The notes under the pieces were generated by a model that saw only the letters and a list, made by a program, of their open reading frames with translations, searched no databases and was not told the DNA's origin. From Lytechinus pictus (lineage: Eukaryota), in contig NC_087250.1 of assembly GCF_037042905.1 (NCBI RefSeq), forward strand, positions 11,224,001 to 11,288,000: a stretch of 64,000 nucleotides of DNA, in the 5' to 3' direction. Of this stretch, positions 11,478 to 33,969 are shown one piece after another (the stretch's first letter is position 1; every line of letters begins with the position of its first letter). The position numbers and the translations under genes are program-made.

Positions 11478-11498
11478 CTGATTGAACCGAAGGGACGT
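11478..11498 (-). CDS. 21-nt symmetric (phase 1/1) microexon, (D)VPSVQS
   Basis: tttatctttgtcgtag|ACGTCCCTTCGGTTCAATCAG|gtaagt: near-consensus splice sites, phase matches the preceding exon, length divisible by 3. Confidence 0.68.
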
Positions 11499-11576
11499 CT
11501 ACGACAAAGATAAACACAGATACATGTAATTGTCAAATTCTTTATCAAAATAGGCTTTTCGTGTTACACAAATAAA

Positions 11577-11592
11577 CTATATATATATATAA

Positions 11593-11626
<34 letters not shown>

Positions 11627-11632
11627 ATATAT
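11577..11632. repeat. (TA)n microsatellite
   Basis: Directly visible. Confidence 0.95.
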
Positions 11633-12581
11633 TATGCTAAAGATTATGCCTAACCAACCCCTCAAAACACAAAATCATAATGGTTAGTTGCGTGCATTTG
11701 AGTGTCCGAAAGTCCACACACACAGCTTCAACACAGGGAACGGTGGTTTTCATGAACGTATTATTGCAGAAATCCGGGCATATCTTTATAACTATTAATA
11801 ATCTCACACCAGATTGATAATAGTGTAAACAAATTATCTTATTCCATTAATTTGATGTAAATATTATTACGATTATTTCACTATTTACGTCTTGCTGTTC
11901 ATTTGAAAGTGTCCATGTTCACAACTCTTGCTATAGCAAACGGTCTGAAGACCATATTTTCGAGATACGGGCACCTTTGTTTATCCCACTAAAAAAGGTC
12001 GAGATTGATTGTCATCTCAATGCTAAAAAGATTACCTACAGTTTGATGTATAATACTTTATGACTAGTATAATGGTTACATCTCATTTTTCTCTCAAACT
12101 TTGAAATCGAGCAGGCAGAACGCGGCATATTTCTGTATACAACGTCACGTGGCTAACGTATGATAGTTTCCTTTCCTAGACCCTTTTCATTTGAAACAAT
12201 TAATACAGTCCTAACAAACTTAACAATGTTCTTGTACTATAAAGCTTTGCCTACTGATATTAATAATATAGCTACAGTTTGAAGAAGCAAATATCGAGTA
12301 CGAAATTGATTTTGATTTGCAATAGGGTCTGCGTAAGTATACTATATGCTAGCAGGCTAGGATCGTCTGCTACGTAAACCAAATGAGCGAACATGACCGA
12401 AACTAACCATTATGTGGAGGAAATCACTTCAGAATGTCAGACCACCTAATATGCAATGCGTATTTTCATTGCAAGTCCTACATGTCGAGGAAATAAATGA
12501 GCACGATATTCCAATGGCTTTATAGAACAAACTTCAAAATAGAACTAAGCATATTTTTATGGGTAAAAACTCAAATGTTAC

Positions 12582-12732
12582 CTGTTAAGTTCATGGTAAT
12601 CAGGATCTCCTTTGTTGTGCTTTGTTCCAAAATAAAAGTGACAATCATCTGGTCATCCCTTGCGTTACTGGTATCCACTTTGAACATCACTCTATGGTCT
12701 GTCAAATGGCGTACATCGCTTTTTTCGATAGT
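12582..12732 (-). CDS. Internal coding exon (151 nt, phase 0/1), end of UPA-like region
   Basis: Acceptor tttcccatattttgtag| and donor taacag|gtaaca. Stop-free translation TIEKSDVRHLTDHRVMFKVDTSNARDDQMIVTFILEQSTTKEILITMNLT has a beta-strand-like alternation. Not in the ORF track. Confidence 0.8.
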
Positions 12733-13254
12733 CTACAAAATATGGGAAATACAAAAAAAGTGAACGACGTTTTTGGCGACCCAAGGCCTTGCATTCTCAA
12801 TCGTTAAAAGAGCCAAGTTACAAATTGCTACCGAACTACTCCAAGGGACCCATCAAACATACGAACGAGGTGGATTAGGCAACTTTACTGCAGTTGAGTC
12901 GTTTGTGTTTAAATACATTGACATAAAATTACTTCCACACGGTTCACCTGTTGAACAAGAGTACTCCAGGGTGACCAGAATTGGCAGTCGAAATACGGGA
13001 AACTGTTATGCCTATGGTGTAATAAGCCCGTGACCGAGCAAACTTTTTGACATTCATAGAGATGATAGGTATGTCGATCATTAATAAATCGACCCAAGAA
13101 GAGGACAAATCGTGAGCCCATTTTTTTAATATCAAGATCTTCAAAATTTATATTTTAAGCAGTTCTTGTGATCATAAACACTGTGCATAATATCTTAACA
13201 ATCAATACGAGCCGAAAGCGTCAGCAGAAACTATGCGTATACATGTATAACTGA

Positions 13255-13512
13255 ACGGTGAACCGGCAAATGCTCCGCCGATTTTTGCTTCATCGACATT
13301 TGCTCCGCCGATATTTTCTATGCCGACAATTGCTCCGTCGCTATTTGCTCCACCATTATTTGTTCCACCAACAATTATTTCGCCGATAAATGATCAACCG
13401 ACAATTGCTCCGGGACAATTGCTCCGCCGACATTTGCTCCGCAAAATGCGACAATTCACCAACATTTGACATGTTTGATCCGCATAATGCGTCAATCGCT
13501 CCACCGACATGA
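13255..13512 (+). repeat. Short diverged tandem repeat (gaca(a/t)ttgctccgcc-like), probably the subterminal array of a DNA element
   Basis: ttgctcc(g/a)cc recurs about ten times. Confidence 0.75.
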
Positions 13513-15085
13513 CCAATTAGATTTGGACCTGGAACATCATTGTTATTTATCAAAGGGGTACTCCGGGCTAACTTGTTTATATCAATTTAATATGGAGTAG
13601 ATTAAGGCAAGATTTAAAAAGTTTCTTAAAAATAAAACAAAACGAATCTGAACGAAATAATTCTTTGATTTCTTTTTTTTTAAATTACAAATAAAGACAA
13701 AAAAAAGAAGAAAAACAATATTTTCTAATCTAAACAATTAAAGGTTAAATTTAGTTTGGATTCAAGCAATCTTGAACGTACAGCTTTTGTAATACGCTGT
13801 TTAATATTTTATACAACGCTGTAGTACATATTAAACAACCATGCTCGATTTATTGAAAATTTGAAATGTTGCAACTTTGTTATTTCGGATTTTAAACACT
13901 TTTTAATATTGTTAAAGAAGAGAACTTTCAAGTCAATATATTGAAGTATGTTGTAAATATTATATAAACAAAATCAAATAGCGTTTCTATTGTGTAAATA
14001 TTCATTATTCTTGAACTCAAAATAAACTAAAATCAAATTAACATTTCTATTTTTGATGAACTATAAAACAAAACAACATTATTACTGTTACAACAGGCCT
14101 TAAAATTGTTGCAAGTCGAGATTTTCTCCAAGGTAAATTGAGGATAATGCCTTGAATTTAATAAAACACAGGGAAATATCAATTTAAGGACGTTCAACAG
14201 TTAAAATGAAGTCCATGTCATTTTCACAAAATTTAGCAAAGAGTTACTTTGGTATCTATGCATTATGAAAATGCAAAAAAATAATATAGGTTCATGCGCT
14301 TATTTTTTTTCGACGGGACTTCATAGTCGCCGCATTTGAATGATGTGCAATCTTGCGCAATCAAGATAATTATGCCTCTCTCAGACCTCACGAATTCACC
14401 AAATGAGTTTAAATCTTTACACAGTGGATACCGCATCAAATTTTCAAGATATATAACAAATTGTATACCAAAGTAAGAGAAAGTTTATTAAATGGTAAAA
14501 CTATATCTATTTGGAGACAGCAGCGTCCTCATTTGGCAAGAATGGTGCAAAAACTCGGAAAAAACAAATCTTCAAAGACGTGAATCTACTCAAATATTAA
14601 AAAAGTATTTTGTAAGCTGCACTTTTTTCGAAATCCATATCATTTTCATCAAATTTGGCAAAACTGTAGCGGAATGTATAAGGAAGATGTAGGGAAGTTA
14701 AAACTATAGGGTCCATGTGCTCGTTTTTTAACTAGGCACACAGCTAAACAAGCCATATACAGAGCGGAAGTGCTCTGTATTCATGGTATTCTAACCCCTG
14801 TGGAAATAATTGTTGGCAGGGGCCGGGTGCTGCAATCGTTCATAAACTCTTTCGTCGTCGCATTGGGATGGCCTAGCGCTGGCCTGGTGCTGATAAGAAC
14901 AGCACCAAAATATGCTATTTCAGCCCACGCCAATCATAAACTTTAAAAAATACGACTTAGACTTGGACTGGTCCGGACCAGCGAGCGACTGAACGGGGTA
15001 TAAATTAACTAAACTTAACAATGGGACATTCGTAAGTAAATTGTCATAATCATATATAAATGAGATCTATTCATGCGAAAGTTAC

Positions 15086-15196
15086 CATTGGTGTCTCTCC
15101 TTTGGTGCTTTCCGGACAACAAATCTTCAGACTGCCAGAACTCCACTTAAAGAAGAATTGCTCTCCTTTGAGGGGAGCTATATAACCACGCGCGTC
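15086..15196 (-). CDS. Internal coding exon (111 nt, phase 0/0), UPA-like region
   Basis: Acceptor cacttttttttccccag| and donor ccaatg|gtaact. Translation DARGYIAPLKGEQFFFKWSSGSLKICCPESTKGETPM is in frame with the flanking exons. Confidence 0.82.
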
Positions 15197-16799
15197 CTGG
15201 GGAAAAAAAAGTGTTTGATTTATTATTTTTTGGTGCGTGTGCGTATTTTCATTTTCTTTAAAACAGATAACGGCTATTAAAGCACATCCAATTCCCACAT
15301 GGTCTTAAATTTACAAAAGTGAAAGAAAGAAATAATTACATTCGGTAAAATTTATGAAAACATTTAATAAAGGTCGAACTGTATATGCATGCTTATATTG
15401 TTATCTAATTTATGCATTTAGGGCTGATAGTTTTTTTTTATAACATTTAGCAATAAAGATTTGTTGATACCAAGATGAATAGCCTTCTTTTACGCGTTAT
15501 TACTATATTGTAACAGAGACAGATTTTAGTCTAATCTCTAAAAAATGTAACATGGAGAAAAAAATATATGTCATAAAAAACTTTTTTTTTAGTTACAGAG
15601 ACATTAAAACATGATGTATACATCTAAGCAGCAATGGAAATGCTCACCTGAGATTTGAACTCAAGTCAGGGCCCTGGAAAATATTTTTTTTCAGTGGGAG
15701 TGCTGACATGGGCTAAAATCTCTCCTCAAATGTTGGGGGGGGGGCACAATTCAGTTCTCAAAATAATTTTATATACACACACACATGCAAGGACACTCTC
15801 CACACACACACCCCACATATGTGTGTGTGTGTACATGAGAGTCACTTCTTAGCTTTATTCTTACAAAGGAACATAGATATTTAATTAATTGTGCGAGCGC
15901 GAAGCACAAGCTACACATTTTGGAAATTTATTGCATTTTGTTCTGAAAATTGAACATTTTGAGCAATGTTTGTAATCCTGAACAAGCATGCAAGTATGCA
16001 ACAAATAATTATTGAGAGCGCGATTAGCGCGAGTAGATACTTTTAATATTCGTTCTGGCCTTATCGAAATGAGACCTGTTCATGAATTTTGCAGTTACCA
16101 ATGAATTCCATACATATTTCAACATTCGAATAATGCGAGCTCGAAGCACGAGCAGAAAATGTTGACCTTCTGACCTAAACATTGGACATTATGAGCACTT
16201 TTTTGTAATCATGGACCGGAAAGGTATGTAACGACTTATTATAAACACTCGCATCGCGGGTGGGTTCGTAATCACTCGGGTTTCGGATTTTGGGCGATTT
16301 TTTTTTTATTTCGGTGAAATTTTTTTTCTAACGGTGTCTTCAATGGGACAAACACGCTGGGAAAATAAAATAAAATTGAAATGCGAGCTTCGTTTTACGC
16401 CGGCAAGTGCCTTATATAAAATGTACTCGACTAATGTTTTAACACAACAAACAAGCAAATTAGCCATGTGGCTCAACTAACTTAGAATAGATCCGGACTT
16501 CTACTGTGTCCTATACGAGGGCTCCGAGTCGGAACTTGCCATATCTGCGACATCGATATTACATCGCATCATTCATAATATGCGGATATGCCTGCACGCA
16601 ATGGCCCCAAGGCGGAACCCGACCGCGGTCGGACACGACGTGCATTGGTAGCATGGAGCAAGCTAACGTGAGTCGAGCCGAGGTAGATCCAACATACGTT
16701 ATACAGTGCCAGTCAGTCCGCAGCCCGTCCGAAAGTATTTTATTCAGCGGTATGCATAGCCATCCGTGGTGTAATGCATATACGTAATGATCTGTGAAT

Positions 16800-19351
16800 A
16801 CGATCTTTCCGATCGGCGTTTTAAAATGTTGCTCTTAGAATTGTCAATTTCTCATAAAATTTGTCTAATGTTTTAGATGAAAGGGCCATATCGTGTTTTA
16901 AGTAACTGGAGACCTAAACAATGCCTCACCTAAAATTCTTTCTCTCTCTGTCTCTCCTACCTTCCGAAATTAAAACACTCCCTCGGACACAGTTTAGACG
17001 CAGGACAAATAATGCTCTGACAACCAATCTAACTTCTCATCAGCATCAGTAAAAATGTGAATGGGCCTTTAAATTAATACTAAAACTGATCTAAAATTGA
17101 ACTTAAATCGATTTTGAAATCGATTTTAAAATAAATTTTAAAATCGTTAATTTTACCTGTCCTAATTATTCCATCAACCCCTCTGTTCACTCCTCTTCAA
17201 ACCCACTCTGCCACTTTTAGACAGTTATAATTCTAAAATCGTATCTTAAATTGATTTTAAAAGCTCAAAATTTTTTTAAGACAGTTGGCTAGCCACGCAC
17301 CTTGTCAATCCCTATTATTTTCTCCTAAAAAACATTACAATTCCATAGACGGAGCCCTAAAGGAGGACTAAATAATAAGGATTGACAAGGCGATATCGTG
17401 GCTAGCCAACTGTCTTAGAAATGTTTGAGCTTTTAAAACCAATTTGAAATACGATTTTACAATCGATTGTAAAATTGATTTCAAATCGATTTTATAATCA
17501 ATTTGATATTCATAATCAACTGAATTGTTCCATCAACCCCTCTTTTCCCTTCAAAACCACTCTGCCACTTTCAGACAGTTGGCTAGCAACGATATCGCCT
17601 TGTCAATCCTTATTATTTAGTCCTCCTTTACGGCGCCGTCTATGGGATTTTAATGTTTTTTAATACAGGGAGAGCCCTAAAGGAGGAGTAAGTAATATGG
17701 ATTGAAAGGCGATATCGTGGCTAGCCAACTGTCTTAAATTTACGTTTGAGCTTTTAAAATCGATTTAAAATACGATTTTTTAATCGATTTTAAAATTATA
17801 ACTGTCTAAAAGTGGCAGAGTGGTTTTGAAGAGGACTCAGAGTAATGTTGTAAATCGGATAAAAAGTCAGATCGAAAATCGGATCGGCAGTTAAGCTTCT
17901 AAAATCGAAATTCGAATCGGCGATGTTTAAAAACAAAGGAATAGATCAAAATTTTGTTCGCGGTCGCGCGCATCTTCCTGACAAAGTCACAAAGACGAAT
18001 GCATTGGAATGGAAGTCGCCAACATGTGCGATCGTTTGGAAAATGTTTTAAAGGGGTATTGAGGTGTTTTTAAATAAACAGACTGATTTTTAATAGAAAG
18101 ATAAACGAAAGACGCATCTTCCGAGAAAAGTCGCAAAGGAAAATAAAATCAAAATAAATCTCATAGATTACAGGTTAATGAAAGATCGGCGGGACATCTT
18201 TTATAAGCATTTTTAGGGTGCTAGCGATTTAGAATTATTGGAATGATCTCTTGATCTCGTACGACGCATCATCTTAAAGTCGCAAGTGCAATCAAAATGT
18301 ATAGAAGTCGCAAGCACGCGCGATGATTCGGAACATGTTATTAAAATGCTTTGGGGAGCTAGCGTTTTCAAATCAATTTATTACTATTTTGAGAAATGAA
18401 CTTTTGATATCCAAGAAAAAAATATAAAAGAAGCATCTCCCGATGAAGTTGCAAAGACAAATCTTGAACGATGTAAGAGAGTAACGTTATGAACTCCGTC
18501 AGTAGTACGATCTGTAAAAGTTCACGGTGGGGTCCGCTATCACCACGAGGTTGAAGAGAAGTTGTATATCATCATAAAGGAGGTAAGAGAGTAGCGCAGT
18601 GATGTCCGTCGGTAATACGACCTTTCAAAGTTCACGGCGGCGTCCGCTATCAACACGAGGTTGAAGAGAAGATATCTATCCTCGTAAACATCGCCAGAGA
18701 TACATGTAATACCGCGTCTTTCTCCTTGATTAATGCGACCTCTAAATAGCTAGCACCTCAAAAAAAAGCTTGAAATATGTTTTGAACGATCACGCACTGT
18801 ATCTAGATCTACGCCGATTTTTTCCTTCAAGGGGCGTGATCAAAGATCGGCGGTGATCGCCGATTGTGGTAAAATCGGGAGCCGATTTTAAAATCGGTTA
18901 ATTAGAACAGTACAAATACGATTTTCAAAATCAATTTTAAATCGATCTAAGATCAATTTTAGATCAGTTTTAGTATTATTCTTAAAAGCTCATTCACATT
19001 TTTACTGATGCTGACGAGAAGTTAGTTCGATTGTCAGAGCATTATTTGTCCTGCGTCTAAATAACTGTGTCCGATCGAGGGACTGTTTTGATTTCGGAAA
19101 GGTAGGAGAGACAGACAGAGAGAAAGACTGATCCCGTTCAGCTCAACGTATACGTTTCGCGCGCGAGCACAAAGAAGATTAATCAAGCACATCACCTAAT
19201 GCAATGTATCGAAAATTTAGGTAGGTAATTTTTTAGGTCTCCAGTTACTTAAAACACGATATGGCCATTTTATCTATAAGATAATACACATTTTATGAGA
19301 AATGGACACTAATTAAGAGCAACATATTAAAACGCCTATCGGAAAGATCGT
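16800..19351. repeat. Second long inverted repeat (arms ~350-450 bp) nested in the long-TIR element, containing further palindromes
   Basis: acgatctttccgatcggcgttttaaaatgttgctctta at 16800 mirrors taagagcaacatattaaaacgcctatcggaaagatcgt ending at 19351. An inner inverted pair lies at ~17190-17300 / ~17715-17835. Confidence 0.88.
18472..18675 (+). repeat. Two diverged ~110-bp tandem copies
   Basis: gtaagagagta...aagttcacgg...tccgctatca.cacgaggttgaagagaag occurs at ~18473 and ~18583. Confidence 0.8.
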
Positions 19352-20026
19352 CCTCTTTGCATGCTGAATTCAACTTTTGGGGAATAATAATTACAATTGT
19401 TTCCATGATATTTTCTTTGAATCAAGATTTCCATTATGAACAATTGATACTGATGATTATTATATAGATGGTGTCCAAGAACTTTTGTCATTTATTAACT
19501 TCTCTAATATGAAGTTAGGGGAGAAAACTAATTATTACGATTGTTGAATTTAATTGTACGAATGTGCAAAATTGCAACATCAGCGTGCAGCCGTCTGTTT
19601 CGAGGAGTGTTTTAAAAATTGTATTTCTCTCGTACACAGACGGCTCGCTATCGTGCAGCCACCATCAGGGGGCTAACAATGCAAAATCACCCAGACGGGG
19701 CTCATCGATATTTGTCTTTATTTCATAAAAATATATGAAAAGAACTGTACCAAAATACAGATTATTATTCCGTTTTGTCCTAAAATGCACAAAAAACGGG
19801 GAAAAATAAACTTAAAAGGGGAAAAACAGTGACTAATTACTTCGGCTGTCGCACAGCTTCACTTCCCTGTTTTATTGGAACTTAATATATAAACATAAGG
19901 CCATTGAGTCCCTGTACAGATCGAGCTAGAACTTTGGTCTCTGTATTGGTGAGTGGAGCCAACGGAGTTCAGCGGAACAACGAACATAACAGAGACCGAA
20001 GCTTTTGGTCTATAATTACGTATATA

Positions 20027-20808
20027 CAGTGCGTCCCACAAAAAACGAAACCGAGATTTATCGATGATTTATCATAATAATCACAGATACAATAGACAAA
20101 TAGACAATACAATAGACAAATGACCTACCATTGTAAAGCTTAAACAATTTGAAGAGGGTATACCAAATAGTCATTGGGCGGGCTGTAGGCCTATCTGGGT
20201 TTCAAAAGGGAAACCACATTTTTAAAAAGTTGGCAATATCTGCTCTTTAATTTCATACCTAAATTACAGAAAATGGACAAGAAATAAAGTTCTGGTTATT
20301 TGAAATAAGGCTTGAATTTCAATAATTTCATAAAATGAAGAGGTTCTACAAGCTAGCGTTCAAACTCACTTGACACTCCGTTTTATTGACGATCAGCCAT
20401 GCAATAAGTCTTTTGTTAACCTTGCGATAGCTTCTGTGGGAAACCAGTGAAAACACGTTCATGTAATGAAATTATGGAAATACAAGCATTGATTCGAGAG
20501 AACATAACTTTTTTACTTCTTGACCATTTTGTTGTGATTAAGGTATCAAATAAAAGAGCAGATATTGATCTTTTTAGGCATGTGACTTTCTTTTTGAAAT
20601 TCAGATACCCCCGCCAAATGAGTTTTTTGTATCCTTTCTTCAAACTGATTTTGCTCGCTCATGCGAGAATGAGGAATAATCTTAGTAATATCAGATGAAA
20701 GAGGAGATTCTGAGCTTTACATTGGTAGGTCATTTGTCTATTTTATTTATTATTAAGTTATGATAAATCATCGCTTAATCTCGGTTTCGTTTTTTCTGGG
20801 ACGCACTG
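20027..20808. mobile_element. Tc1/mariner-type MITE
   Basis: TA|cagtgcgtcccacaaaaaacgaaaccgagatt ... aatctcggtttcgttttttctgggacgcactg|TA. It is inserted at the inner edge of the host's right TIR. Confidence 0.92.
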
Positions 20809-23164
20809 TATATATGCATAAAACCACGGATGGCTGGCTATGCATACCGCTGAATAAAATACTTTTGGACGGGCTGCGGACTGACTGGCACTGTATAACG
20901 TACGTTGGATCTACCTCGGCTCGACGTTAGCTTGTTCCATGCTACCGATGCACGTCGTGTCCGACCGCGGCCGGGTCCCGCCTTGGGGCCATTGCGTGCA
21001 GACATATCCGCATATATGAATGATGCGATGTAATATTGATGTGGCAGATATGGCAAGTTCCGACTCGGAGCCCTCGTATAGGACACAGTAGAAGTCCGGA
21101 TCTATTATAAGTTAGTTGAGCCACATGGCTAATTTGCTTGTTTGTTGTGTTAAAACAGTAGTCGATTACATTTTATTTAAGGCACTTGCCGGCGTAAAAC
21201 GAGGCTCGCATTTCATTTTTATTTTATTTTCCCAGCGTGTTTGTCCCATTGAAGACACCGTTATAAAAAAAAATCGCACCGAAATAAAACAAAAAATCCA
21301 AAACCCGAGTGATTACGAACCCACCCGCGACGCGAGCGTTTATAATAAGCCTATGTAACTATTCATATTGAGATTTCAGACCTTAAAACGGGACATTCTA
21401 AGCACTTTTCTTATTAACAGGATATGTATTATACCTTAAAATCGACGCGAACGCGAAGCGCGAGCGGAGACAAAATTGATATTTCAGACCTCAAAACGGA
21501 ACACTCTATTCATGTTTTGTAAATCACGAATAGAATGGGCTATTGGGTATCTTCCTACATTAATAATTTGACCGCGAAGCGTGAGCCTAATTAAGCACGT
21601 TTAAATACAAAAACAAGATGCGTATCGGAAATATTTAGATTTTTACCTAGAATCTGGGCATTTTGAATACATTATTTAATTATGAAAATCAGTAATTCGA
21701 GTTCGAAGCGCGAGCTGAAAATATTTGATATTCCGATCTGAAAACGGATGAATTTAAACACTATTTCAAGCACTGTGTAGGAAAATTCTGAACTGGGGGG
21801 GGGGGGGGGGGGCTACAAGCGTCGTTCATTTTCATTACATTTCTGTCATTCATCATACCTACTATATTTCAAGGGGGTGCTGCTTATGAAAAATAACTCA
21901 CGCATCACCCCTTCCCCCAGCACCCAGCTTCCCAGGGCCATGCCTCAAGTCAGGACACTTAAAGTCACCTGACCAGAAGTCATGTTCGTGTTTTTTTTTT
22001 CGATGTCGGAGAGTACTATATACCTTCTCGTCGAAAGTAATTACGGTAGGGGAGGGTAGTCGCGTATTAGAACAGCCACTTCGTGCCTACTATACGAGTT
22101 GTGTAAGGAGGGGAAAAAATGTATATTGCATTTGGTAATTGAAGGCGGGGGAGAGATCGAGGAGGGGACACACAAACACAAAAGTACCCTTATTTTCTAT
22201 CGGTATATATATCATTGGCGTGCATAATTATATACATACAGTCATACATGCGCACATCGTCTCAGTAGATGATGAATAGGCATATACATAGAAAAAAAAA
22301 CGATAGCTGTTGAAAGTGTAGTTTTATGCTAGGACAAAATAAATATTTTTAAATAATGAAATAACAAAATGCTTTGTGTTGTTTTCCCTTTTTGTTGACC
22401 AAATTTTCATGAATGTGATAATGGTTTTAGGCCCTTTACATAATATACGCTGATTCAGACATCTTATTAAGTGCACAGACAGGCCTACTACTTTTGGGGC
22501 TTGGGAGTGATGTCCTTCTCCTCCAAGTCTCTCATTTTTTAATGTTCTTTTTCGGTGAAAATTTCTGGTGTATTTATCAAGTTAAAAAAATGCATGGTGA
22601 AGAAGACATTGTAGATATTGAAAATGAAATTGTACTTTAAAGGTGATTTAAAACAAAGTAGGCCTCGTTGTCCCTGTATCAGAATAAGCATACATGTATA
22701 TATCCCCTCACACATAATTATGTTACTACGCAGATTCAGCCAATATTGGAAAAAATACATGAGGCGTGTAATCTAAACGCTTCATATAATCCACTGCAAG
22801 TCATGACATAGTATTTTATGGTGACTAGAGGTTATTGTTATTGTATTTCCGTTACTTCAAGTTGAAATGGCACATATAGATTTACATGATTAGATAACAT
22901 ATTGCCTTATCTCATTTGTTTCGTATGTTTCTTTTATTTTTTTGGTTTAGGGGAAGGGTAGTGAGTAATGACAATTAACAAGTAATGGCATGGTTCTGAA
23001 AGGTCACTTGAAGTCATTGTTGCTCATGTTATATCCTTAAAGTTGTGATGGCCATGGATGCTATGGCTAACGTTTGGGGTTTCAACGAGGCGTGTGATTA
23101 TATTCCTTCATAAAATCAATACATGTTCTCGTAGAATGACTTGTGACTTAGAATGACTTTGTTT

Positions 23165-26100
23165 TGTGTTAAGATGGGGTCTTTTTTCCAGACCCGGTTG
23201 TTTCAAAAATTATAATATAAGTCCAAAGTCTTTTTCCAGACCCGGTTGTTTCAAAAACTATAATATAAGTCCAAACTAAGAAACGATGATATTCCAGTGG
23301 AATAAAAATGAGAATCAAGCTTAGTCTTTTCTCCAGACCCAGTTAATTAAGATTGGTGGAATAAATGTATTTGTTGTTGTTTTAACTTATATGGCGCATA
23401 TTGTGAATATATGCGCTAAGAGTAAATTGAGAATCGAGTGTAGTCTTTTCTCCAGACCTGGTTACTTAAAACTAAAAACTAAAACCCTTTACCCACAAAT
23501 GTTTTAAATTTGAAGGGATTTTTGGCGAATCTGATCTAAACTAAAACCCTATAGTAATGCGTTCATAGAGCGCAACGTTACAGTCTTTTTTCTCCAGTCC
23601 CGGTTATATAAAACATTTAAACAATCTTCCAAATAAAGATCCCAAAATTAATTCTTCTCAATGTTGAATAACATAGAAGTTCAGTGTAGTCTTTCATCCA
23701 GACCCAAATATTTCAAATAGCAAATAAAAAATGATAAATAATAATAATAAAAAAACAAAGCCCCACGATCTTATTAATGTTGACCTAAATGTAAATATAG
23801 CATAGTCTTTCCTCCAGACCCAGTTATAAAAAGATCATTAAAAAAACAAAACAACAACAACTACCAAAACAGACCCCGCAATATTTTCAACATTGAATAG
23901 CATTGATATATGGTGTAGTCTTCATTCCAGCCCCGGTTATTTCGAAATAGCAAATCATAAAGAACAATATTAACAAAGACCCCACAATCTTATTGATGCT
24001 GAATAACTTGGAAATATAGCGTAGTCTTTCTTCAAGACCCGGTTATTTTGAAATAACAAATCATAAAAAAGATATACAATAATAAATCAAAGACCCCACA
24101 ATCTTAATGATGATGAATAACATGGAAATATAGCGTAGTCTTCCCTCCATACCTACTTATTTAAAAATTACAAATCATTTTTTAAAGAGTCAAAAAGTAA
24201 CAAAGACCCCCACTTTCTTATTATTGGTTATATTACATGGAAATATAGCGTAGTCTTTCATCCAGACCTAGATCTTTCGAATAACAAATGATGAATAATA
24301 ATAATAAATTAATAATAATAATAAAAACAAACAAAGTCCCGCGATCCTATTTATGTTGAATATCATGGAAATATAGCGTAGTCTTTCTTCCAGACACAGA
24401 TATAAAAATCATTAAAAACACAACAACAACAAAACAAAGATCCTGCAATCTAATCAACATTGAATAGCATGGAAATATTGTGTGGTCTTTGTTCCAGACC
24501 CAGTTATTTCAAAATAGGAAATTTTAAGAAACAATAAAAACAAATAAACATTATTAACAAATAACCCACAATATAATTGATGTGGAATAACGTTGTTGTT
24601 GTTGTTGTTATCTTGGGTTTTAAGGCGCATATCATTCAGATATGAATATTTACCTCTATGATTAATTTGTCGTTTTTGTGGTATGTGTTATCACAAGCTT
24701 TTTATAGTTTGGAAGATGCTGAAGTAAAAGTTTTAAGATTAATGCTTAATTTGTATTTTTAAGATAGCTGGGTGTGGGGTAAAGAGATCACTCTTAACCC
24801 AAGCATTTTAACTAGGTTTAATTTTGAAGATTGGTCTCAGCTTTGATTTTTTTTTCAATATTTGCTTATCTTTAAATAACCGGGTCTAGACGAAAGACTA
24901 AGCATAATGCCCGTATTATTCCACAAGAATAAGAATATGAAAAAGTCTTATGTTTTTAAGATTGTTTAAATCATTTTTTTAATGGCTCGGTCTGGAATAA
25001 AGACAACGCTCTAAACACGTGCTTTTCTGCATGGTCTTAATGTGGTGGATTGTTGGTTCTTAGATTCGTTGTTGGGGGTTGGGTTTAATTGCTTTTTCAT
25101 TCTTGAAATAACTGTGTCTGGAGGAAAGTCTACAATCGATCTTCATGTTATTCCACAGTAATTGGATTATTAAGTATTCGTTTTAGAATATTTGTAAAAA
25201 CTTTTTTTTTCAAATAATAACCAAGTCTGGAGAAAGGATGTTTGCTTTACCCATGCATTATTACCATTTTTTGTAGGGGTCTTAGTATTATTTAAAAAAA
25301 ACTGGGTGTGGGGTAAAGACATATTTTTTTACTTGGTGTAATTTTTGAAGATTGGTCGTAGAATTGAAGTTTTTTTATTCATTTTTTAAATAACCGGGTC
25401 TGGAGGAAAGAACACGTTTTAAAACTCGTGTTATTCCACAAGAATAAGAATATGATAGGGTCTTACGTTAGAAGAATTTTTTGTATTTTTTTTATGATTA
25501 GGTCTGGAATAAATACAACGCTCAAAACCTCTTTTTAAAACAGGTTCTTAGGTTAAAGGATTGTTTGGTCTTAGATTTTGAGTATTTTTATTATTACTAT
25601 TAGCGTTATTAAAAAAAATTACTGGGTCTGGCTGAAAGACTACGCTATATGTCCATGTTATCCGCGTTAATAAGATTATGGACTCTTTATACTGTTTTTG
25701 TTGTTGTTTTATCGTTATTTATAATTTTGGAATAACAGGGTTTGGAGAAGAGACTAATCGCGATTTTCATTTTTATTCCACCGCAATATCATTACAGTAT
25801 CTTAGTTTGGACTTATATTAATATGATAGGGTCTTACGTTAGAAGATTTTTTTTGTAATTTTTTTTATGATTCGGTCTGGAATAAAGACAACGCTCAAAA
25901 CCTCTTTTTAAAATAGGTTCTTAGGTTGAAGGATTGTTTGGTCTTAGATTTTGAGTTTTTTTTATTATTACTATTAGCGTAAAAAAAAAAATAATAACTG
26001 GGTCTGGCTGAAAGACAGGGGTGTTTATACTGTTTTTGTTGTTGTTGTATCGTTATTTATAATTTTGGAATAACAGGGTTTGAAGAAGAGACAAATCTCG

Positions 26101-26575
26101 ATTTTTATTTTTATTCCACCGCAATATCATTACAGTATCTTAGTTTGGAGTTATATTATAATTTTTGAAACAACCGGGTCTGGAAAAAAGACCTTGCCTT
26201 TTGTGCTATATGAACGCATTACTATTTGGTTTTAGTTCTTAGTTTTAAGTAACCGGGTCTGGAGAAAACACTACGCTTGATTTTTAATTTCACTCTTAGT
26301 GCATATATTCACAATGCGCGCCGTATAAGTTAATACAACATCAAATACATATTTATTACATCAGTTTTAAGTAACTTGGTCTGGAGAAAAGACTAAGCTT
26401 GATTCTCATTTTTATTCCACTGGAATATCATCGTATCTTAGTTTGGACTTATATTATAGTTTTTAAAACAACCGGGTCTGGAAAAAAGACTTTGGACTTA
26501 TATCATAATTTTGTAAATAGCCTGGTCTGGAAAAAAGACTTTGCACTTATATTATATTTTTTTAATTAACCGGAT
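23165..26575. repeat. Foldback-like structure: two inverted arrays of diverged ~120-bp tandem units
   Basis: Core agtcttt(t/c)tccagacccggtt on + from ~23178 to ~24505 and its reverse complement from ~24765 to ~26575. The outer parts (23181-23450 vs 26250-26520) are nearly perfect reverse complements. The right arm resumes at 28600-28700. Confidence 0.9.
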
Positions 26576-26578
26576 CTG

Positions 26579-28599
26579 GGGCCCATTTCATAAAGGTATA
26601 GCGTCAGTGTCAAATTTTCACTTGCAGCGTGAAATTTAATATTTGACGCTGCAGCGCATTTCATAAAAAGTTGACGCTCCAATAGGAGCGTCAACTTTTT
26701 ACTGGAAAGTCAAGTATGGTTACTGGAGCGTCAAATAGGGTTAAATATTTGACGCTGGTCATAGGGGAGCGTCAAGTTGACACTGTAAAGGGTTTTTCAT
26801 TGTTAAGAATGGCGTACGTTGTGCTCAGGCATGCCCAAAGGGCTCTTACAAGAGAACGGATATTTAGAGCAATGTCTGTGATAATTAATAATGGTTACAC
26901 TTCGTAATTCCGAAGGTTCGTAATTCCGAAACACGTAAATTGCCTTTACCTCGATGTTCATCAATCAGAAAACGTAGAAGGGTTCGTTAATCCGAACATT
27001 TGTGGCGTTATTCCGAAGGTTCGATAATCTGAAAACGAAATAAGGTTTGTTAATCATTATGTTTTCGGAATCACGAACCTCATTTTGTTTTCGGATTAAC
27101 AAACCTTCGGAATTACAAACCTCACTTTGTTTTCGGACTAACGAACCTTCGGAATAACGAACCCTATTTCGTTTTCGGACTTACGAACTTTCGGAATTAC
27201 GAACCTTCGGAATAATGAACCTTCGGAATATGCAAACCATTGGAATAACGAAGCTTCGGAATTACGAATGTATGCGTTAATAATGCTAATAACATGAATA
27301 AAGAATATATTAAGGGAACGCTTTCTAGTAGAAATGCAGTTTCTTTTTTTTTTGTCCTACCTACCAAAAAAAAAATGTTAAAAAATTCTTCCGAAACAAC
27401 AAATTTTTCAGTTATCACGGGGCAGGCCAAGGAAAAAAAAAGGGAAGTTATAGACAGACTTTAAAAAAAAAAGACAAATGGAGAGGATCTTTTTTCTTGT
27501 AGGAAAAAATAGAGGAAGGTAGATCTATTATGTGGAAGTGTTTAATTTAAAGCCTAAATTAAAAAAGTCCTAGGCCATAATAAAATGATAAAATATTTTT
27601 TTTTCTGTTTCTGACTTTCTCAACAACAAAAAAAGTCGTGGCCATGGCATTGTGGAATCCGTTCACTTTTAAAGTTTAAGTTTACGGTACTGAATGGTTA
27701 TTCGCCGTTGAAACCGATAACTTAAAAATATTTCCATTATGAACAAAAATAATCTTTTAAGGTCATTTTCGATGTTTCATGCATAATTAGAGCCTACAAA
27801 TTTACTTGCTTCAGGGTGATTTTTAATAGCACTGCACCAGCAGTGGCCTGCGCCTGCCTTGTTGTTGATACAACCTTGCATTACCGACACAAATAGTCAA
27901 GTGTGGGACTGGGATGAAAATTGTACGGTAGAAACTTTGTTGAAGGTGAAATTTTGACCGGCAATAATAATAAATTTTCCCCCTTTTTAAAATAATTTTT
28001 TCCCTGGCATAGGGCTAAATTAAATAAATTCTCTGAAAACTTACACAATGGAGAAACAATGCTATGCCATCCTGTGACAAATTTATATTTTCTTCTTACT
28101 CTCTTCTAGAATTGCAAACTATCGCCATAGTCATAGAGCCATCACTCTGCTTCAACTGCTAGTCTTATGCTGCAGACCCTGTTAGCAGCTGCTAAATAAT
28201 AATTTCGCTCCCGAAAAAATTAATAAGCAAAAAAAATATATATATTCTCTTTCAATTTTTGTTCTTCTAATTTTGCTTCTCAAAGGTGGGGGGGGGGGGG
28301 GGAGCACGGGCCGGCTGTGCCCCCCCCCCTGGATCCGCCAGTGCTTTCTACCTAAACTTATGACTTGAATTGAAAACAAAAAAACTGGAGAGAAAAGGGA
28401 TTTCCCCCTAATCAGCCTCGTACATGACTATTCAAATAAATAGCTGGAAAGTCAAGCTGACTTTCCAGCGAATGTGCTTTTATGAAATGCAAAGTTGCTA
28501 TCATAGCCAGTTGCTAGCATAGCAAGCAAAAGCTGCTATTCTACCAGAGTTGCTATGATAGCAACTTGCTATGATAGCAACTCTTTATGAAATGGGCCC
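26579..28599. mobile_element. PIF/Harbinger-type non-autonomous element
   Basis: TIR gggcccatttcataaag / ctttatgaaatgggccc with a 3-bp TSD CTG (26576-26578, 28600-28602). It interrupts a unit of the foldback array. Confidence 0.87.
26890..27277. repeat. Nested element built from inverted arrays of a ~16-bp unit (ttcgtaattccgaagg)
   Basis: The units are on + from 26900 to 27050 and reverse-complemented (ccttcggaattacgaa) from 27060 to 27268. Confidence 0.8.
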
Positions 28600-28687
28600 C
28601 TGGAAAATAGTCTTTGTACTTTTGTGCTATATGAACGCAATACTATAGGATTTTAGTTAAGAACGGATTCGCCAAAACTCCCTTCAA

Positions 28688-28822
28688 ATTTATTACATTT
28701 GTGGGCGATCAAAAATTATTACATTAGTGGGTAAAGTGCATTATTACATTTGTGGGTGAAATTATTACATTCGTGGGTAAAGTGTTATTACATTTGTGGG
28801 TGTTATCACATTTGTGGGTGCA
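28688..28822 (+). repeat. Short tandem repeat of attattacatttgtggg (~20-bp period)
   Basis: About six diverged copies are visible. Confidence 0.8.
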
Positions 28823-28882
28823 ACCCCCCCCCCCCCTAGCACGTTGGTAAGACCATGTTAGAACGCCGATCTGGTGCCTTAA

Positions 28883-28985
28883 CCCTTTGCACGCTGATGT
28901 TGCAATTTTGCACATTCGTACAATGCAGCAATCGTTATACTTATTTTCTCCCCTAACTTCATATTAGAGAAGCTAATAAATGGCA
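28883..28985 (+). mobile_element. piggyBac-like terminal fragment
   Basis: TTAA|ccctttgcacgctgatgttgc. A diverged inverted copy lies at ~19490-19589. The partner terminus was not found. Confidence 0.55.
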
Positions 28986-29116
28986 AACAGACCAGATAAA
29001 TAACTCAAACTTGCTTTGATGATTTATATATATAAACAAATCAATGTTCTAAAACATTTTTTTTAAGGCAATGTCTCATGATAAATTACATTTGAAAGAA
29101 CCCCAAAACAACAAAC

Positions 29117-29358
29117 CTCTTCTTCGTGTTCATTTGCGTCTCTCACTTGAAGAAACAGAACGCTCATGCTATTCTTCAGTGGTCGCACGGGGACATACGG
29201 CGTACAAATAACACGCTTTCCAACGAACACCTCTTCGAGAATAGCCACGATCCAATATTCGGAGAAGTGATTGAAGGAGATATCTAGATCGCTATGTCTT
29301 ACAACACACCTTGGACTAACACCGATGGAAGAAGATATCGCAACAAACTGTTTTGAAG
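29117..29358 (-). CDS. Internal coding exon (242 nt, phase 1/0) with the HFS motif and start of a UPA-like region
   Basis: Acceptor tctccttttatctgacag| and donor gaagag|gtttgt. Translation (A)SKQFVAISSSIGVSPRCVVRHSDLDISFNHFSEYWIVAILEEVFVGKRVICTPYVPVRPLKNSMSVLFLQVRDANEHEEE lies within ORF 29063..29437 and is phase-compatible with the ZU5 exon. Confidence 0.87.
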
Positions 29359-29849
29359 CTGTCAGATAAAAGGAGACAACCAATATAAAATGTAGATAGA
29401 AACATATAAAATTCCTGATATACAGTATCTGTAACATGTCACATTTCTGTTAAAGAAAAGCTGTAAAAACACGGCTAGAAACATTAAGAAGTCTATTGTA
29501 TAATGACAGATTTGCAAGCAAATTTTGTGTTCAAATAATGTTTGCATAAAAAGGGAAGAAGTGCATACAATTTGATAAATAGTTAGAATTTAATAGTTTC
29601 AATTGAATGATTACTCTTTACATACAGGTATTATTATAGTTTGTGTATGTGTCGCGATACTTCAATAATTTCATTTTTTGGTTAATGCATGTTTAAAGAT
29701 GACTAATCAGCCATACCCATTTTTTCAAAGTGAGAACTTGTGCAGACATTTTACTTAGAGTTCACAAATAAGAATTGGGCACATTAAAACATTAGTGATT
29801 CTCTCAAGAAGAGAGGTTATACATATTGTTAACAATATACTATCAAACA

Positions 29850-30290
29850 AGGGTTTGATGGTATTCCAAACTTCCTGCTAAAGAGAATAATCTTGGCTGT
29901 CGTCGATCATTTGATTCATATCTTTAATACTTCTTTGAACACAGGAAGTGCACGCGTTTATTGTTTATTTTTTTGCTGAAAGCCGCCCAAGTAATCATGC
30001 TTTTCCAAATTAAGTTTGATAACCAACTCGTCTCAAATTAACGTCCAATGTCGTTCCTAACCTTTTATAAAAACATATTTGGAGTGAGAACCGTGATCAT
30101 ACACGAACAAGCACCTTCTTAATATGAAAAAAAATGTATATATATTTTCGAACTTCCTTTTGGGCTTCGCCAAAAAATCAGAAAACTTCGGATGCAATTC
30201 TTTTTCTGTTTCATGGATTTCTCCGAGGCATTCGACATCATTAACCACGAATTATTCTTCCGCATAAATTATTTAATTATGGCATTAGGG
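29850..30290 (+). mobile_element. Decayed LINE reverse transcriptase fragment
   Basis: Remnants FDGIPNFLLKRII..VDHLIHIFNTSLNTG and FMDFSEAFDIINHEL. Confidence 0.75.
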
Positions 30291-30396
30291 GGGAAGGCGT
30301 CAATCAGGATAGGTTGTAGGGGGGCTTTGGGGACTAATAAATTGACAATGATTGACCTACTCTCAAATTTTTAATCCAAAATTGTTGCCAGTTTAA

Positions 30397-31061
30397 CCCT
30401 AAAAAACTGGGCTATTTTAAAAGTATTAAAGACTGGGGGCATCATTCCCCCCCCCCCCCCTTCTGATCTCGGCCGCCGTTCGCGGGATCGCGCCGAATTT
30501 CGGCACGCACATTCTTTACTGCATAAAGTACAAGGTAGTATTAAAAAAATAGAAAATAACGATTTTTTTATTATTATGAATAAAATATGCAAATTTATTC
30601 ATGAAAAACATTTTCATATTTTACAGCCTATTTCATTTCAAATTTCCTTCTTTTTTTGCAGAGGTCATCTTTGTAATCTCATATAAAGGGTTTCCAAAAA
30701 AAAATCGCGAAAGCCAACTTTACCTTAACATGTATTTCTTTGTTTTTAAAAATTCTTATGCATTTCTTTGTTTTTTATGTTTTGTTTTTCATTGTTTTTT
30801 CAATGTAAATTATTACAAACCATTCGAAAACTGAATTAAACTCTAAATTATTTAAGCAGACCAATTAAACGAAAAATTATCACCCTTTTATGAATTTCAT
30901 CTCCCTTAAACTTTGTACACAAAAAATTAAAATGAGCCTTTCACCAAAAAAGTTGCGCGAGATAAAAAAAAGTCATAAATTTCTGCCGCGCTATCTTTTT
31001 GCGTTTCTGAAATATCGCGCGAAGGGTTGGGGGGGGGGGTGCTCCCCCAGTCGTCTTAGGG
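30397..31061. mobile_element. piggyBac-type MITE
   Basis: TTAA|ccctaaaaaactggg ... cccagtcgtcttaggg|TTAA. Confidence 0.85.
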
Positions 31062-32544
31062 TTAATTTTTAATCGTACAGACTTACTAATGGGCTCAAAT
31101 ATATTCTCAATTACGCTCATTTAATGATGGACAATGCTGTGCAAAAAAATTACTTATTACGCATGAAACAGACACAAACGGCCATTTTGGAGAAAGTGAT
31201 TTTGTATGATTTGCTCTATAAATCGGTTTAACATAATGCTCAATGAGGGAGTAATAGAGGATGATACAAAAAAATATCTAAGTGGTAAACCTAGCCTTGA
31301 TCTCCTAGTCAGAAAATAATGACATTTAAATATCCAAAATGGAAACCGGCGTCCATTTTGAAGAAAGTGAATTTTGAAATATTATCAAAACTTGAAAGTG
31401 GATATGTATCATGAAATGTTAGCATGATGGTAATCATTTTATATTAATGATTTTTTTTGTACGAGTTTCGTGTAACATGATTATGGACGAAGATCATTTT
31501 GACCGTGTTGTATTATAAATGACATCATACATTTGAAAGTAGATGAATAATTTCATGGAAACTGGACCAATAGGAAATCAAGTATCAGTGAATCTCCTAC
31601 CTGGATATCAGGTCACATAATCAAGGTCAAATGGGAAAGCGTCCATGTACTTACACCATATTGGTGACATCCGCATCGAAACCTTAACGATTTTTTTTAC
31701 ATGCGTCGTGTATCCTAAAGTATGCTAACCTATATCATACAATCTGGACATATGGGTAAATCTCTGATTTCCATGCAAATGTTTCAGGTAACAAAGTTCA
31801 ATGAACTTTGACCAAATTGTAAGGTCAACATTCGAAATTATGATAACGGGCAATCTAACTCAAATAAATAAATAATAACCAAAAAATATTTCAGGGGAAA
31901 AAGAAAAATCAGAAAACAGAATGGTCGATCCGTGAAAATTTGAACAAAATCGGACAAACAACAATAATGATGATGATAATTAATGATAATAATAAAAATA
32001 ATAAGGCATTTTTTGTATAGCGCATATCCGATATCATATAAAGTTACTACGTTTTTCCAAAGGAATTGGATATTACAAAAAAGTCATGAATCTTAGAAAT
32101 GTATAAAAATCGATAATCATTATACCAATGAGACTTCAATATGGCAGCATTTGTGATGTCAGAGTGATGTAAGGCAAATACTACTTTTCCATTTGTTCAA
32201 ATCCATAAAATAGTTTTTTTTTTTTTTCAAAACGTTTAGTTCAAATTACTTTGTCTTTCACGAGGACATGAATCAATACGCTACCTGAATTATTTTTTTT
32301 GTATTACTGTCCCCTGGAAATAGTTACTTAGGAAAAAAACAATGAATTTGTGAGGGCTAAGGTGCCACAATTTTGATTTTAGATATTTATATTTCCGAAA
32401 ACCCTTTCAAGACGGTCATTTTGAAACATCCAATATGGTGGCAATATAGGGGTCGGTGCTCACACCCTAACGTTTACAAAATGTTAGAGATTTTGAAAAC
32501 ATTATAAACTAAGTTATGCTTTGATTCATTCAGGTAAAATACGA

Positions 32545-33062
32545 ATTACGAACAGAAATAAATTTCATCATCTGCGCTTACTGGTTTAAAACGGAGAACA
32601 GTTTCACGTCCGATCCGGCATCATTTTCTTCAGCTCATCTGAACTGGTTGGAAATCGTCGTTGCCGCTTGGAGGCGACGCACAATCGATTGTCGTTGAGA
32701 CGTCGAGGATTTTTTTTCGGATTACAGGGTTGTCATTCCGAGAGAAGCTATGTCGTAATCCCCTCCTATGTTGAGGAAGGGGTTCTCCGCGGTGACGTAG
32801 ACTACTTTGCGGACCCCCTCTCAAACCATTTAGGTTCTTTATTTTGAATGAGCACATTTTGCCTTTGAAATTGTGTTTAGATATGTTTAGGTGTTCCTCG
32901 ACTTCTCAAAGACAATAAAATCGATTGTGCGTCGCCACCAAACAGCAACGACGATTTCCAGCCAGTTCAGACGAGCTGAAGAAGCTTCCCGGATCGGACG
33001 TGAAACTGTTCTCCGTTTTAAACAAGTAAGTCCTGATGATCAGATTTAATTCTATTCGTAGT
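32545..33062. mobile_element. MITE-like inverted repeat, arms ~150 bp
   Basis: tttaaaacggagaacagtttcacgtccgatccgg...gcgacgcacaatcgatt mirrors aatcgattgtgcgtcgc...ccggatcggacgtgaaactgttctccgttttaaa. TSD not resolved. Confidence 0.8.
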
Positions 33063-33633
33063 TAACAGATTTTATATCTGTCAAATAAAAACTGTCCCCA
33101 AATTAGAACATAGTGAGCCAGACTAGATGGGTGGTTCCCACCAATAAATGGGTGATATTTAGTCAGCCCTATTTAGTTTTTGTATTATATTTCATGCATT
33201 AACATAATACAGTTACAGGTAAGGGAAACTTCAGCCAAGCAAAATAAAACCAGTAGAATATTCCAATTACGATAATAATTACAACGTGATATCAAATTAA
33301 TGCGAATTTCGATTGGCAATACTCAATTCAGAATGTTGCTTTTGCTAGGCCCGTTTCCTTCCAGTTGTGGCAAGCCATTTTTGACATCCCTGACAAATAA
33401 AGGTTAGTGTTTGGTTATGCATTAATAACAGAATGACGATTTGGCGTCATCTTATACATAAGTTTTTCCACACAAATAAAATGAAAGTAAACAAATTATC
33501 CATCATAAAGTCTTTAAATTGATTCTCATTGATTCTCTATCATTATATCATATTCTTTACCCCTGAAATGTATTCTGTTTAATATTGGAACGAAATATAA
33601 CATTTGATGTTTATGTTAATAAGAAGTGTTTAC

Positions 33634-33969
33634 CACTTTGTCGATAATATGAAACGATTTCCACCTTCTCTGGCTTTGTGAACCTGCCACAGTGGGGCAT
33701 CGTTATTTCAACAGGGTGTCCAAAGACTGCATCAGAAGGCAACCTTATCTCCAAGCCGACTGTAATTATGGCTTCATTTTCTTTAATCAACAGCTCAGGT
33801 GGGACATCCGTTATTGCGTTGACAATAAAATCCTTTGCACTGTAAGCTTCATTTCTTGGAATTCGAACTTCAATACCATGATTCTCGAGTCGAATTGTGT
33901 CAGGATCATCATTTGATTCTTCGCTGATTTGTAGACTTTTTCGAGTGCTAAACGAACCAACATTTCTTC
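33634..33969 (-). CDS. Internal coding exon (336 nt, phase 1/1) encoding a ZU5 domain; first visible exon of a ZU5-HFS-UPA (UNC5CL/PIDD-like) gene
   Basis: Acceptor ...ctgttttaaaag| and donor agtg|gtaaac. Manual translation is stop-free: (G)RNVGSFSTRKSLQISEESNDDPDTIRLENHGIEVRIPRNEAYSAKDFIVNAITDVPPELLIKENEAIITVGLEIRLPSDAVFGHPVEITMPHCGRFTKPEKVEIVSYYRQS. It shows ZU5 hallmarks L-x3-GI-x-V-x-IP and F-x2-PV-x-I-x2-PHC. Confidence 0.88.

Follow-up and report, generated by a model that had tools for sequence, protein, structure and literature searches.

The window analysed here, a stretch of 64,000 nt from Lytechinus pictus (C6:11224001-11288000 in the 812-Mb assembly; contig coordinates are given below as C6 and plain numbers refer to the window), most probably carries the core of an expressed and spliced gene encoding a ZU5-UPA-death-domain protein of a large sea-urchin family, a reading to which we assign a probability of roughly 0.8. 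An initial annotation of the window had proposed a hidden spliced gene made up of five exons and coding for a ZU5-HFS-UPA protein, without stating the strand; the gene lies on the minus strand. In the order of transcription, its five exons are as follows.

33634-33969, minus strand: exon 1, 336 nt, coding for the N-terminal two thirds of ZU5; AG before and GTAAAC after it, with a firm donor and an uncertain 5' edge.
29117-29358, minus strand: exon 2, 242 nt, coding for the remainder of ZU5, the HFS motif and the initial strands of UPA; acceptor tctgacAG, donor GTTTGT; contained in the RefSeq protein model P0001.
15086-15196, minus strand: exon 3, 111 nt, coding for UPA; acceptor ttttttttccccAG, donor GTAACT; colinear with homologues.
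12582-12732, minus strand: exon 4, 151 nt, coding for the end of UPA; acceptor ttttgtAG, donor GTAACA.
11478-11498, minus strand: exon 5, a 21-nt micro-exon coding for DVPSVQS, phase 1 on both sides; acceptor gtcgtAG, donor GTAAGT.

The AG acceptors of the five exons sit behind a pyrimidine-rich run, and a GT donor follows each exon. The annotated borders, the exon lengths (336+242+111+151+21, 861 nt in total) and the sizes of introns 1 to 4 (4275, 13920, 2353 and 1083 nt) were confirmed to the base. When the exons were joined and read from the third base, 286 whole codons without any stop were obtained, with one split codon at each end; the open frame claimed earlier therefore stands, whereas the figure of 287 codons does not, which is a difference of counting. 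The ORFs (open reading frames) around exons 1 and 2, of 127 and 128 codons, are the two longest within 11000-34500. Since exon 5 is in phase 1 on both sides, skipping it keeps the frame, and its residues form an insertion that is missing in all six aligned homologues. An Rfam scan of 1-34100 detected no family at gathering score.

For splicing evidence, window positions 9451-29450 were compared with contigs of the runs X1 and X4, which come from two studies, and with raw reads of the RNA runs X6 and X7. The X1 and X4 contigs each carry the joints 11498>12582, 12732>15086 and 15195>29116 (cut at +1), which skip exactly 1083, 2353 and 13920 nt and have CT..AC ends, i.e. GT..AG on the minus strand. 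A single X4 contig of 526 nt consists of exactly exons 5, 4, 3 and 2, and the joint 11498>12582 has 21 letters on its exon-5 side in the contigs of both runs. Thus introns 2, 3 and 4, for which junction reads had been proposed as a check, are removed at the predicted bases. The next-best copies in the assembly are 64% identical for exon 1 and 58% for exon 2; as neither exon has a second near-identical copy there, the joined form is not accounted for by an assembled retrocopy. Intron 1 lies outside the compared stretch, and its removal is backed by P0001, by the split of the paralogues and by an X1 contig that runs on for 71 letters past exon 2 on its 5' side.

The exon structure recurs in the relatives of the gene. 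All of 19 paralogue loci match exon 1, and in 12 of them exon 2 follows within 3.3 kb, split at the same residue, 112-113. Exons 1 to 4 were all present in the same order in three of the five paralogue loci that were extended to 20 kb. Six sea-urchin proteins align unbroken over the exon 1/2, 2/3 and 3/4 joins, and a HMMER search with exon 1 against 1.84 billion representatives returned 66 proteins at E<=0.001.

A second form of the transcript end was seen next to exon 5.

11136-11477, minus strand: read-through of the exon-5 donor, adding 22 codons and then TAA.

The X4 contig of this form is 372 nt long, unbroken on 11136-11500, and has a depth of 5.6 as compared with 12.9 for the spliced contig. 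It represents either a possible alternative last exon, which would give a short isoform without death domain, or a retained intron.

Two further features were observed in the stretch compared with the sequencing runs. Sequence depth at 9451-10784 is very high for both strands in all four runs (word depth 3000-9800 in the contigs; 19-65 reads in the raw runs), with fixed differences and joints that go back 81; this segment looks like an abundantly transcribed repeat rather than a part of the gene. At 21794-21813 and 28285-28302, hundreds of X6 and X7 raw reads break off at short G-runs into loose tails of poly-G or poly-C, which are most likely an artefact of sequencing chemistry.

As the initial annotation had expected, exon 1 alone matches the Pfam ZU5 family PF00791, scoring 22.7 bits against a cut-off of 21 (E 1.2e-4, profile positions 12-91 of 97). 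Exons 2, 3 and 4 gave chance-level Pfam rows only, and exons 3 to 5 have no Pfam match on their own. A UPA-like profile match, which had also been expected, was not obtained: Pfam UPA did not match the gene and is absent from the 25 most-matched families of 73 relatives, because the sequence identity of the sea-urchin family to it is too low. The expected structural comparison with UNC5b and ankyrin, on the other hand, did give matches, so that UPA is borne out by fold and not by Pfam. The fold evidence was obtained on the homologue P0013, which is 54% identical to the core encoded in the window over 262 residues.

An AlphaFold2 model of P0013 built with 73 sequences reached a mean pLDDT of 89.9 and a pTM of 0.69, with pLDDT 93-97 over residues 136-270; it supersedes a run with 31 sequences in which the UPA part had pLDDT 32-59. 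Foldseek matched the model to UNC5b (3g5b; E 1.6e-12, TM 0.56/0.54), to the ZU5-ZU5-UPA-DD (DD, death domain) structure of ankyrin-B (4d8o; E 5.7e-10) and to the FIIND of rat NLRP1 (7crw_A; E 2.8e-4). By VIA-align, the model matched UNC5b 3g5b at Z 20.2 (rmsd 3.1 A, 254 residues, model residues 5-261), ankyrin-B 4d8o at Z 17.8 (318 residues, model residues 5-368), and CARD8 7jn7_B and NLRP1 7crw_A at Z 13.4 and 13.2, respectively (228-229 residues), while rows of unrelated beta-sandwiches begin at Z 8.6. Model residues 5-138 match the ankyrin ZU5 at Z 10.4-10.9. An ESM Atlas model of P0013, whose match is rated by the tool as a lead, has a TM of 0.79 to the UNC5 UPA over residues 128-263. When a sequence profile of the family was compared with the PDB, the sole significant match was ankyrin-2 4d8o (E 4.8e-6), through ZU5 and the death domain only. 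The death domain of P0013 has a six-helix fold with pLDDT 86-96 and matched the death domains of RAIDD, the PIDD complex and TNFR1. In the predicted structure, the UPA beta-sandwich directly follows ZU5 and is packed against it.

The initial annotation had found neither terminus of the protein confidently visible. A tblastn search with family proteins against 30 kb of downstream sequence revealed a death-domain-like exon about 40 kb beyond exon 5, outside the window. A direct join from exon 5 to this exon was rejected as out of frame; a 103-nt exon lying between them restores the frame, and the two exons are 38-40 kb downstream.

C6:11197188-11197290, minus strand: predicted exon 6, 103 nt, coding for a Ser/Thr/Pro-rich linker 67% identical to the linker of P0068; borders cttctttttAG and GTGAGT.
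C6:11194888-11195146, minus strand: predicted exon 7, coding for the putative death domain; acceptor tcttacAG, 85 codons to TAA, 76-77% identical to P0068.

The phases of these exons are compatible: exon 4 and exon 5 each stop after the first base of a codon (G), the linker adds two bases and ends two bases into a codon, and exon 7 adds one. P0068 (L. variegatus LOC121417249, 185 aa) is the sole match of the death-domain exon among proteins of at least 150 residues, and it joins an exon-3-like end, an exon-4-like part, the linker and the death domain. The death-domain exon and the death domain of P0013 share 38% identity, and the seven-exon model, which comprises 406 codons to TAA (399 without exon 5), is colinear with P0013 over residues 17-397 at 46.7% identity (E 4e-118). 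Past exon 5, an X1 contig continues for 43 letters that were not placed, consistent with one more exon lying beyond the compared stretch. Among the matches listed, there was no other ZU5 exon near the locus on C6. From this sequence evidence, the gene appears to continue outside the window into the linker exon and the death-domain exon, with the frame kept up to a stop codon. The C-terminus is therefore predicted to be a death domain beyond the window, and the statement that no end is confidently visible still applies to the N-terminus, which was not found.

The HFS motif that had been placed at the boundary between ZU5 and UPA was located in exon 2.

29261-29269, minus strand: HFS, codons CAC TTC TCC, at residue 142 of the 406-residue model; candidate self-cleavage site HF/S.

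Its position is backed by the P0013 model, in which HFS (126-128) forms a turn between strand 119-126 and strand 129-135, where the part matching the ankyrin ZU5 (5-138) gives way to one that matches beta-sandwiches only (from 143). Twelve paralogue copies of exon 2 carry HFS in eight cases, PFS in one and HFC in three, i.e. Ser or Cys is kept in all 12. Among 38 close family proteins, 35 have HFS, two have HFC (isoforms of one gene) and one has HFF, so that Ser or Cys is kept in 37. Ser and Cys are both able to serve as nucleophile, and UNC5CL is another protein that cleaves itself. According to D'Osualdo et al. (2011, PMC3210808), PIDD self-cleaves at HF/S directly after each ZU5 and CARD8 and NLRP1 do so at SF/S; the second Ser and a buried Phe are needed for cleavage, the fragments remain associated, and in UNC5b a Leu replaces the Phe. 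By analogy, the protein encoded here probably cuts itself between the Phe and the Ser of HFS, as suggested by a conserved motif in the right structural place.

To assess the size of the family, exon 1 was searched against its own genome. At least 64 matches were found at E<=0.001 (86 candidates scored), comprising exon 1 itself, 21 matches at 53-64% identity and 42 at 24-43%; many of them lie in tandem clusters, e.g. at C8:33.57-33.90 Mb and C8:39.9-42.3 Mb. This count provides the paralogue number that had been proposed as a check. A genome scan with Pfam profiles gave at least 118 ZU5 matches among 136 candidates and at least 108 matches to Death. Of the 73 relatives, 68 match Pfam ZU5 (E<=1) and 21 match Death, and ankyrin repeats stand in front in nine and a B-box in two. 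As many as 39 of the 40 hits to P0013 are from sea urchins, the 40th being unnamed, and the six named among 10 distant hits are all sea urchin (Strongylocentrotus or Diadema); judging from all named relatives, the family has so far been seen only in sea urchins. The gene itself is a divergent singleton on C6, with a best paralogue 64% identical in exon 1 and with 43-59% core identity to the 38 close family proteins. The view that it is a divergent, lineage-expanded gene and not an UNC5 orthologue is thus upheld by at least 64 look-alikes of exon 1, at least 118 ZU5 matches, urchin-only named relatives and the absence of Ig and TSP1 from the listed Pfam families of the relatives. Literature searches, made without the 2006 sea-urchin genome companion papers, found no paper on a sea-urchin ZU5-UPA-DD family.

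As an observation on domain architecture, the S. purpuratus protein P0099 (1656 aa; UniRef 'NACHT domain-containing protein') falls into one cluster at 90% identity with P0037, a remote relative from S. purpuratus with a Pfam ZU5 match. This hints at NLRP1-like architectures of NACHT plus ZU5 in sea urchins, the ZU5 match being that of P0037.

The gene is only partly hidden, because RefSeq LOC129263377 already joins exons 1 and 2. Its product P0001 (XP_063956822.1, 'uncharacterized protein LOC129263377 [Lytechinus pictus]', 358 aa) contains the product of exon 1 at 100% identity as residues 164-274, followed by exon 2, three other residues and the end of the protein; exons 3, 4 and 5 are absent, and no other L. 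pictus model with exons 3-5 was found. Hence the description of the gene as hidden is right for exons 3-5, whereas exons 1 and 2 had already been modelled with other ends. P0001 extends exon 1 upstream by at least 22 nt, to about 33991 (including IKYSVLK, 33970-33994), where there is no AG on the minus strand. The 5' edge of exon 1 is for this reason unsettled, and the exon start of P0001 near 33991 is either a non-canonical splice or an imprecise model.

The first 70 residues of P0001 (MAAST...) map 73.6 kb upstream, at C6:11331579-11331788 (window coordinate 107585-107788), and look like an exon of a mobile element or of a multi-copy gene, which suggests that the gene model is chimeric, perhaps in its start. 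For residues 69-155 of P0001, no location was found in the 84 kb that precede exon 1. A tblastn search with 67 family proteins against the same 84 kb detected no exon for an N-terminal domain besides the first exon of P0001. The region immediately upstream of exon 1 is occupied by a satellite.

34003-64000, continuing to about 79650 (about C6:11303650), no strand assigned: satellite with a unit of about 382 bp (Tandem Repeats Finder periods 380-385).

A blastn search with one unit gave 122 matches between 34003 and 79652. The satellite is about 45.6 kb long and starts about 35 nt upstream of exon 1, separating exon 1 from any upstream exon. It has a GC content of 0.26-0.28 with a steady positive GC skew; its inner sub-arrays are 81-85% alike, and its gene-side edge is more degenerate (70-74%).

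Other repeats were noted in and around the gene. Intron 2 contains an inverted repeat (16289-16577 and 21015-21303; 289 nt, 92% complementary, 4437 nt apart), and since both arms carry similar ORFs they are probably a single type of mobile element present twice, facing opposite ways. At 7298-7372 on the minus strand, a run of 25 codons shows 80% identity (E 1e-7) to the N-terminal 25 residues of P0007, a ZU5 family protein of 241 aa; the P0007 model may have picked up a repeat fragment as its first exon, and no link to the gene is evident. On visual inspection, two adjacent ORFs of 108 and 87 codons at 2092-2682 on the minus strand look like the C-terminal part of the reverse-transcriptase ORF of a LINE.

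Several results weigh against the reading as an expressed ZU5-UPA-death-domain gene. At the 5' side, the frame upstream of exon 1 closes after eight codons without an ATG, and therefore at least one 5' exon must exist; neither a start codon nor a 5' exon was found, and the satellite of 45 kb lies upstream. Copies of the first exon of P0001, 37-80% identical to it, occur at no fewer than 28 further sites in the genome, and several of them contain stops. A word-based search for an orthologue of exon 1, scoring 99 candidates, gave none above 63%, L. variegatus included. At the 3' side, the joins between exons 5 and 6 and between exons 6 and 7 are based on phase, on homology and on the 43 unplaced letters of the X1 contig, with no RNA join seen; the death-domain exon scores 19.3 bits on Pfam Death, below the cut-off of 22.6, and the whole-genome scan with Pfam Death listed nothing near the locus. 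With respect to expression, X1 and X4, from which the spliced contigs come, have no RNA label on record, and about 6% of the raw RNA runs X6 and X7 were read, giving no junction read for the gene. The fold was taken from a relative of 54% identity rather than from the window's own peptide. Self-cleavage and an immune or signalling role are putative.

If the gene is as we read it, its product would be a cytoplasmic protein in which exons 1 and 2 encode a ZU5 ending in HFS, exons 2 to 4 UPA, exons 5 and 6 a Ser/Thr/Pro-rich linker and exon 7 the death domain. The serine of HFS would attack the Phe-Ser bond, as in PIDD1 and in the FIIND of NLRP1 and CARD8, and cleavage would yield a ZU5 fragment and a fragment of UPA plus death domain, the two remaining paired until removal of the N-terminal one. 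Once released, UPA-DD would oligomerise and recruit death-domain partners. The gene would be one divergent, dispersed member of a family whose other members vary in their N-terminal parts (ankyrin repeats, B-box/TRIM-like).

A bolder proposal, which we consider tentative, is that the family works as a sea-urchin 'tripwire' on the principle of PIDD and FIIND, the self-cleaving ZU5(HFS)-UPA coupling an interchangeable N-terminal sensor or bait to a death-domain output. On this proposal there might be dozens to more than 100 such genes, with ankyrin repeats, TRIM-like B-box/coiled-coil and perhaps NACHT as baits, and with the present gene as a divergent, dispersed member. Destruction of the N-terminal piece, e.g. 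by a pathogen, would let UPA-DD assemble a death-domain signalling complex. Should this be true, the family would be an invertebrate-deuterostome counterpart of the functional degradation of NLRP1 and CARD8, with a death domain replacing the CARD.

It is also conceivable, though we regard it as unlikely, that the locus is an expressed but decaying copy, whose original N-terminal exons and promoter disappeared as the satellite grew, and which is now transcribed from a repeat-derived upstream exon and makes no useful protein. A satellite of about 45 kb lying about 35 nt from exon 1 would agree with this, as would introns of 4.3 and 13.9 kb compared with roughly 0.4-1 kb in the paralogues, a multi-copy element as the first exon of P0001, the unplaced residues 69-155 of that model and its stop after exon 2, a read-through form ending shortly after exon 5, and the failure to find a close orthologue of the ZU5 part. 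However, seven exons remain open over 406 codons with canonical splice sites, the near-invariant residues of the family and HFS are retained, and splicing is exact in two studies. In this AT-rich DNA about 7% of random codons are stops (an estimate from composition), so that a frame of 406 codons would not last long without selection.

That the window holds the cytoplasmic half of a true UNC5 netrin receptor, ankyrin or PIDD1, with the remaining exons outside it, is very improbable. UNC5b and ankyrin-B are indeed the best structural matches, and some family members are named ankyrin-like and have ankyrin repeats, but identity to those structures is 10-13%. The proteins nearest to it, at 43-59% identity, are without exception sea-urchin paralogues labelled 'uncharacterized'. 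I-set, Ig and TSP1 do not occur in the list of 25 Pfam families for the 73 relatives, there is one ZU5 here as against two in ankyrins and PIDD1, and stronger Pfam ZU5 matches (83-91 bits) elsewhere in the genome are better candidates for the conserved genes. Chance open frames with GT-AG borders and no gene, which the lack of a Pfam match for exons 3-5 alone might suggest and which a reader selecting open frames will sometimes find, are refuted by the exact spliced contigs, by E values down to 1e-118 against homologues over all joins and by the existence of a RefSeq model.

On the preferred reading, a ZU5-UPA-death-domain gene, the public model covers two of at least seven coding exons, has a doubtful, repeat-derived start and is without the death domain; with the corrected model, an 'uncharacterized protein' becomes recognisable as one of the ZU5-UPA-DD type. 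New here are the predicted linker and death-domain exons outside the window, the partial RefSeq coverage, the satellite at exon 1 and the size of the family, the type of protein itself being known; the single locus on its own is an ordinary family member. Self-cleavage is the key step of PIDDosome and NLRP1/CARD8 signalling in vertebrates. The near-universal nucleophile of HF[S/C] in a family of many copies and varied N-termini points to self-cleavage as a selected property, and, if it does take place, sea urchins would offer a natural library for how such switches diversify.

Among known systems, PIDD1 and UNC5CL have the order predicted for the gene described here, a ZU5 ending in His-Phe-Ser followed by UPA and a death domain, with the position of the Ser conserved in the sea-urchin family. 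They differ from it in that one ZU5, not two, is present here, a search for LRRs in the family gave none, and the gene is not known to have an N-terminal membrane anchor; as for features of a PIDD1 orthologue, a single ZU5 is present in both the 406-residue model and P0013, and no LRR family is listed for the relatives. UNC5b (3g5b) is the best structural match of the P0013 model; ZU5 and UPA superpose as one rigid unit, and its order ZU5-UPA-DD is the one predicted here. The identity in this match is 10%; where the sea-urchin family carries the Phe of HFS, UNC5b carries Leu, and it is not reported to cleave (PMC3210808). No Ig, TSP1 or transmembrane part was seen in the family (25 listed Pfam families, 73 relatives), and P0001 has no Pfam family at E<=0.001; the absence of UNC5 extracellular domains is thus a result on the family and not strictly on this gene.

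Ankyrin-B and ankyrin-G (4d8o, 6m3q) match the P0013 model through all three domains, and some family members likewise have ankyrin repeats. The gene differs from them in its single ZU5 and in belonging to a paralogue set confined to sea urchins, as opposed to a conserved cytoskeletal adaptor. Pfam FIIND matched two of the 73 relatives, weakly (E 0.023). While the output of NLRP1 and CARD8 is a CARD and their site is SFS, the output predicted here is death-domain-like and the site is HFS; nevertheless, their FIIND shares with this gene the ZU5-UPA pair and the Phe-Ser site at its boundary, and the N-terminal parts of the relatives of this gene vary.

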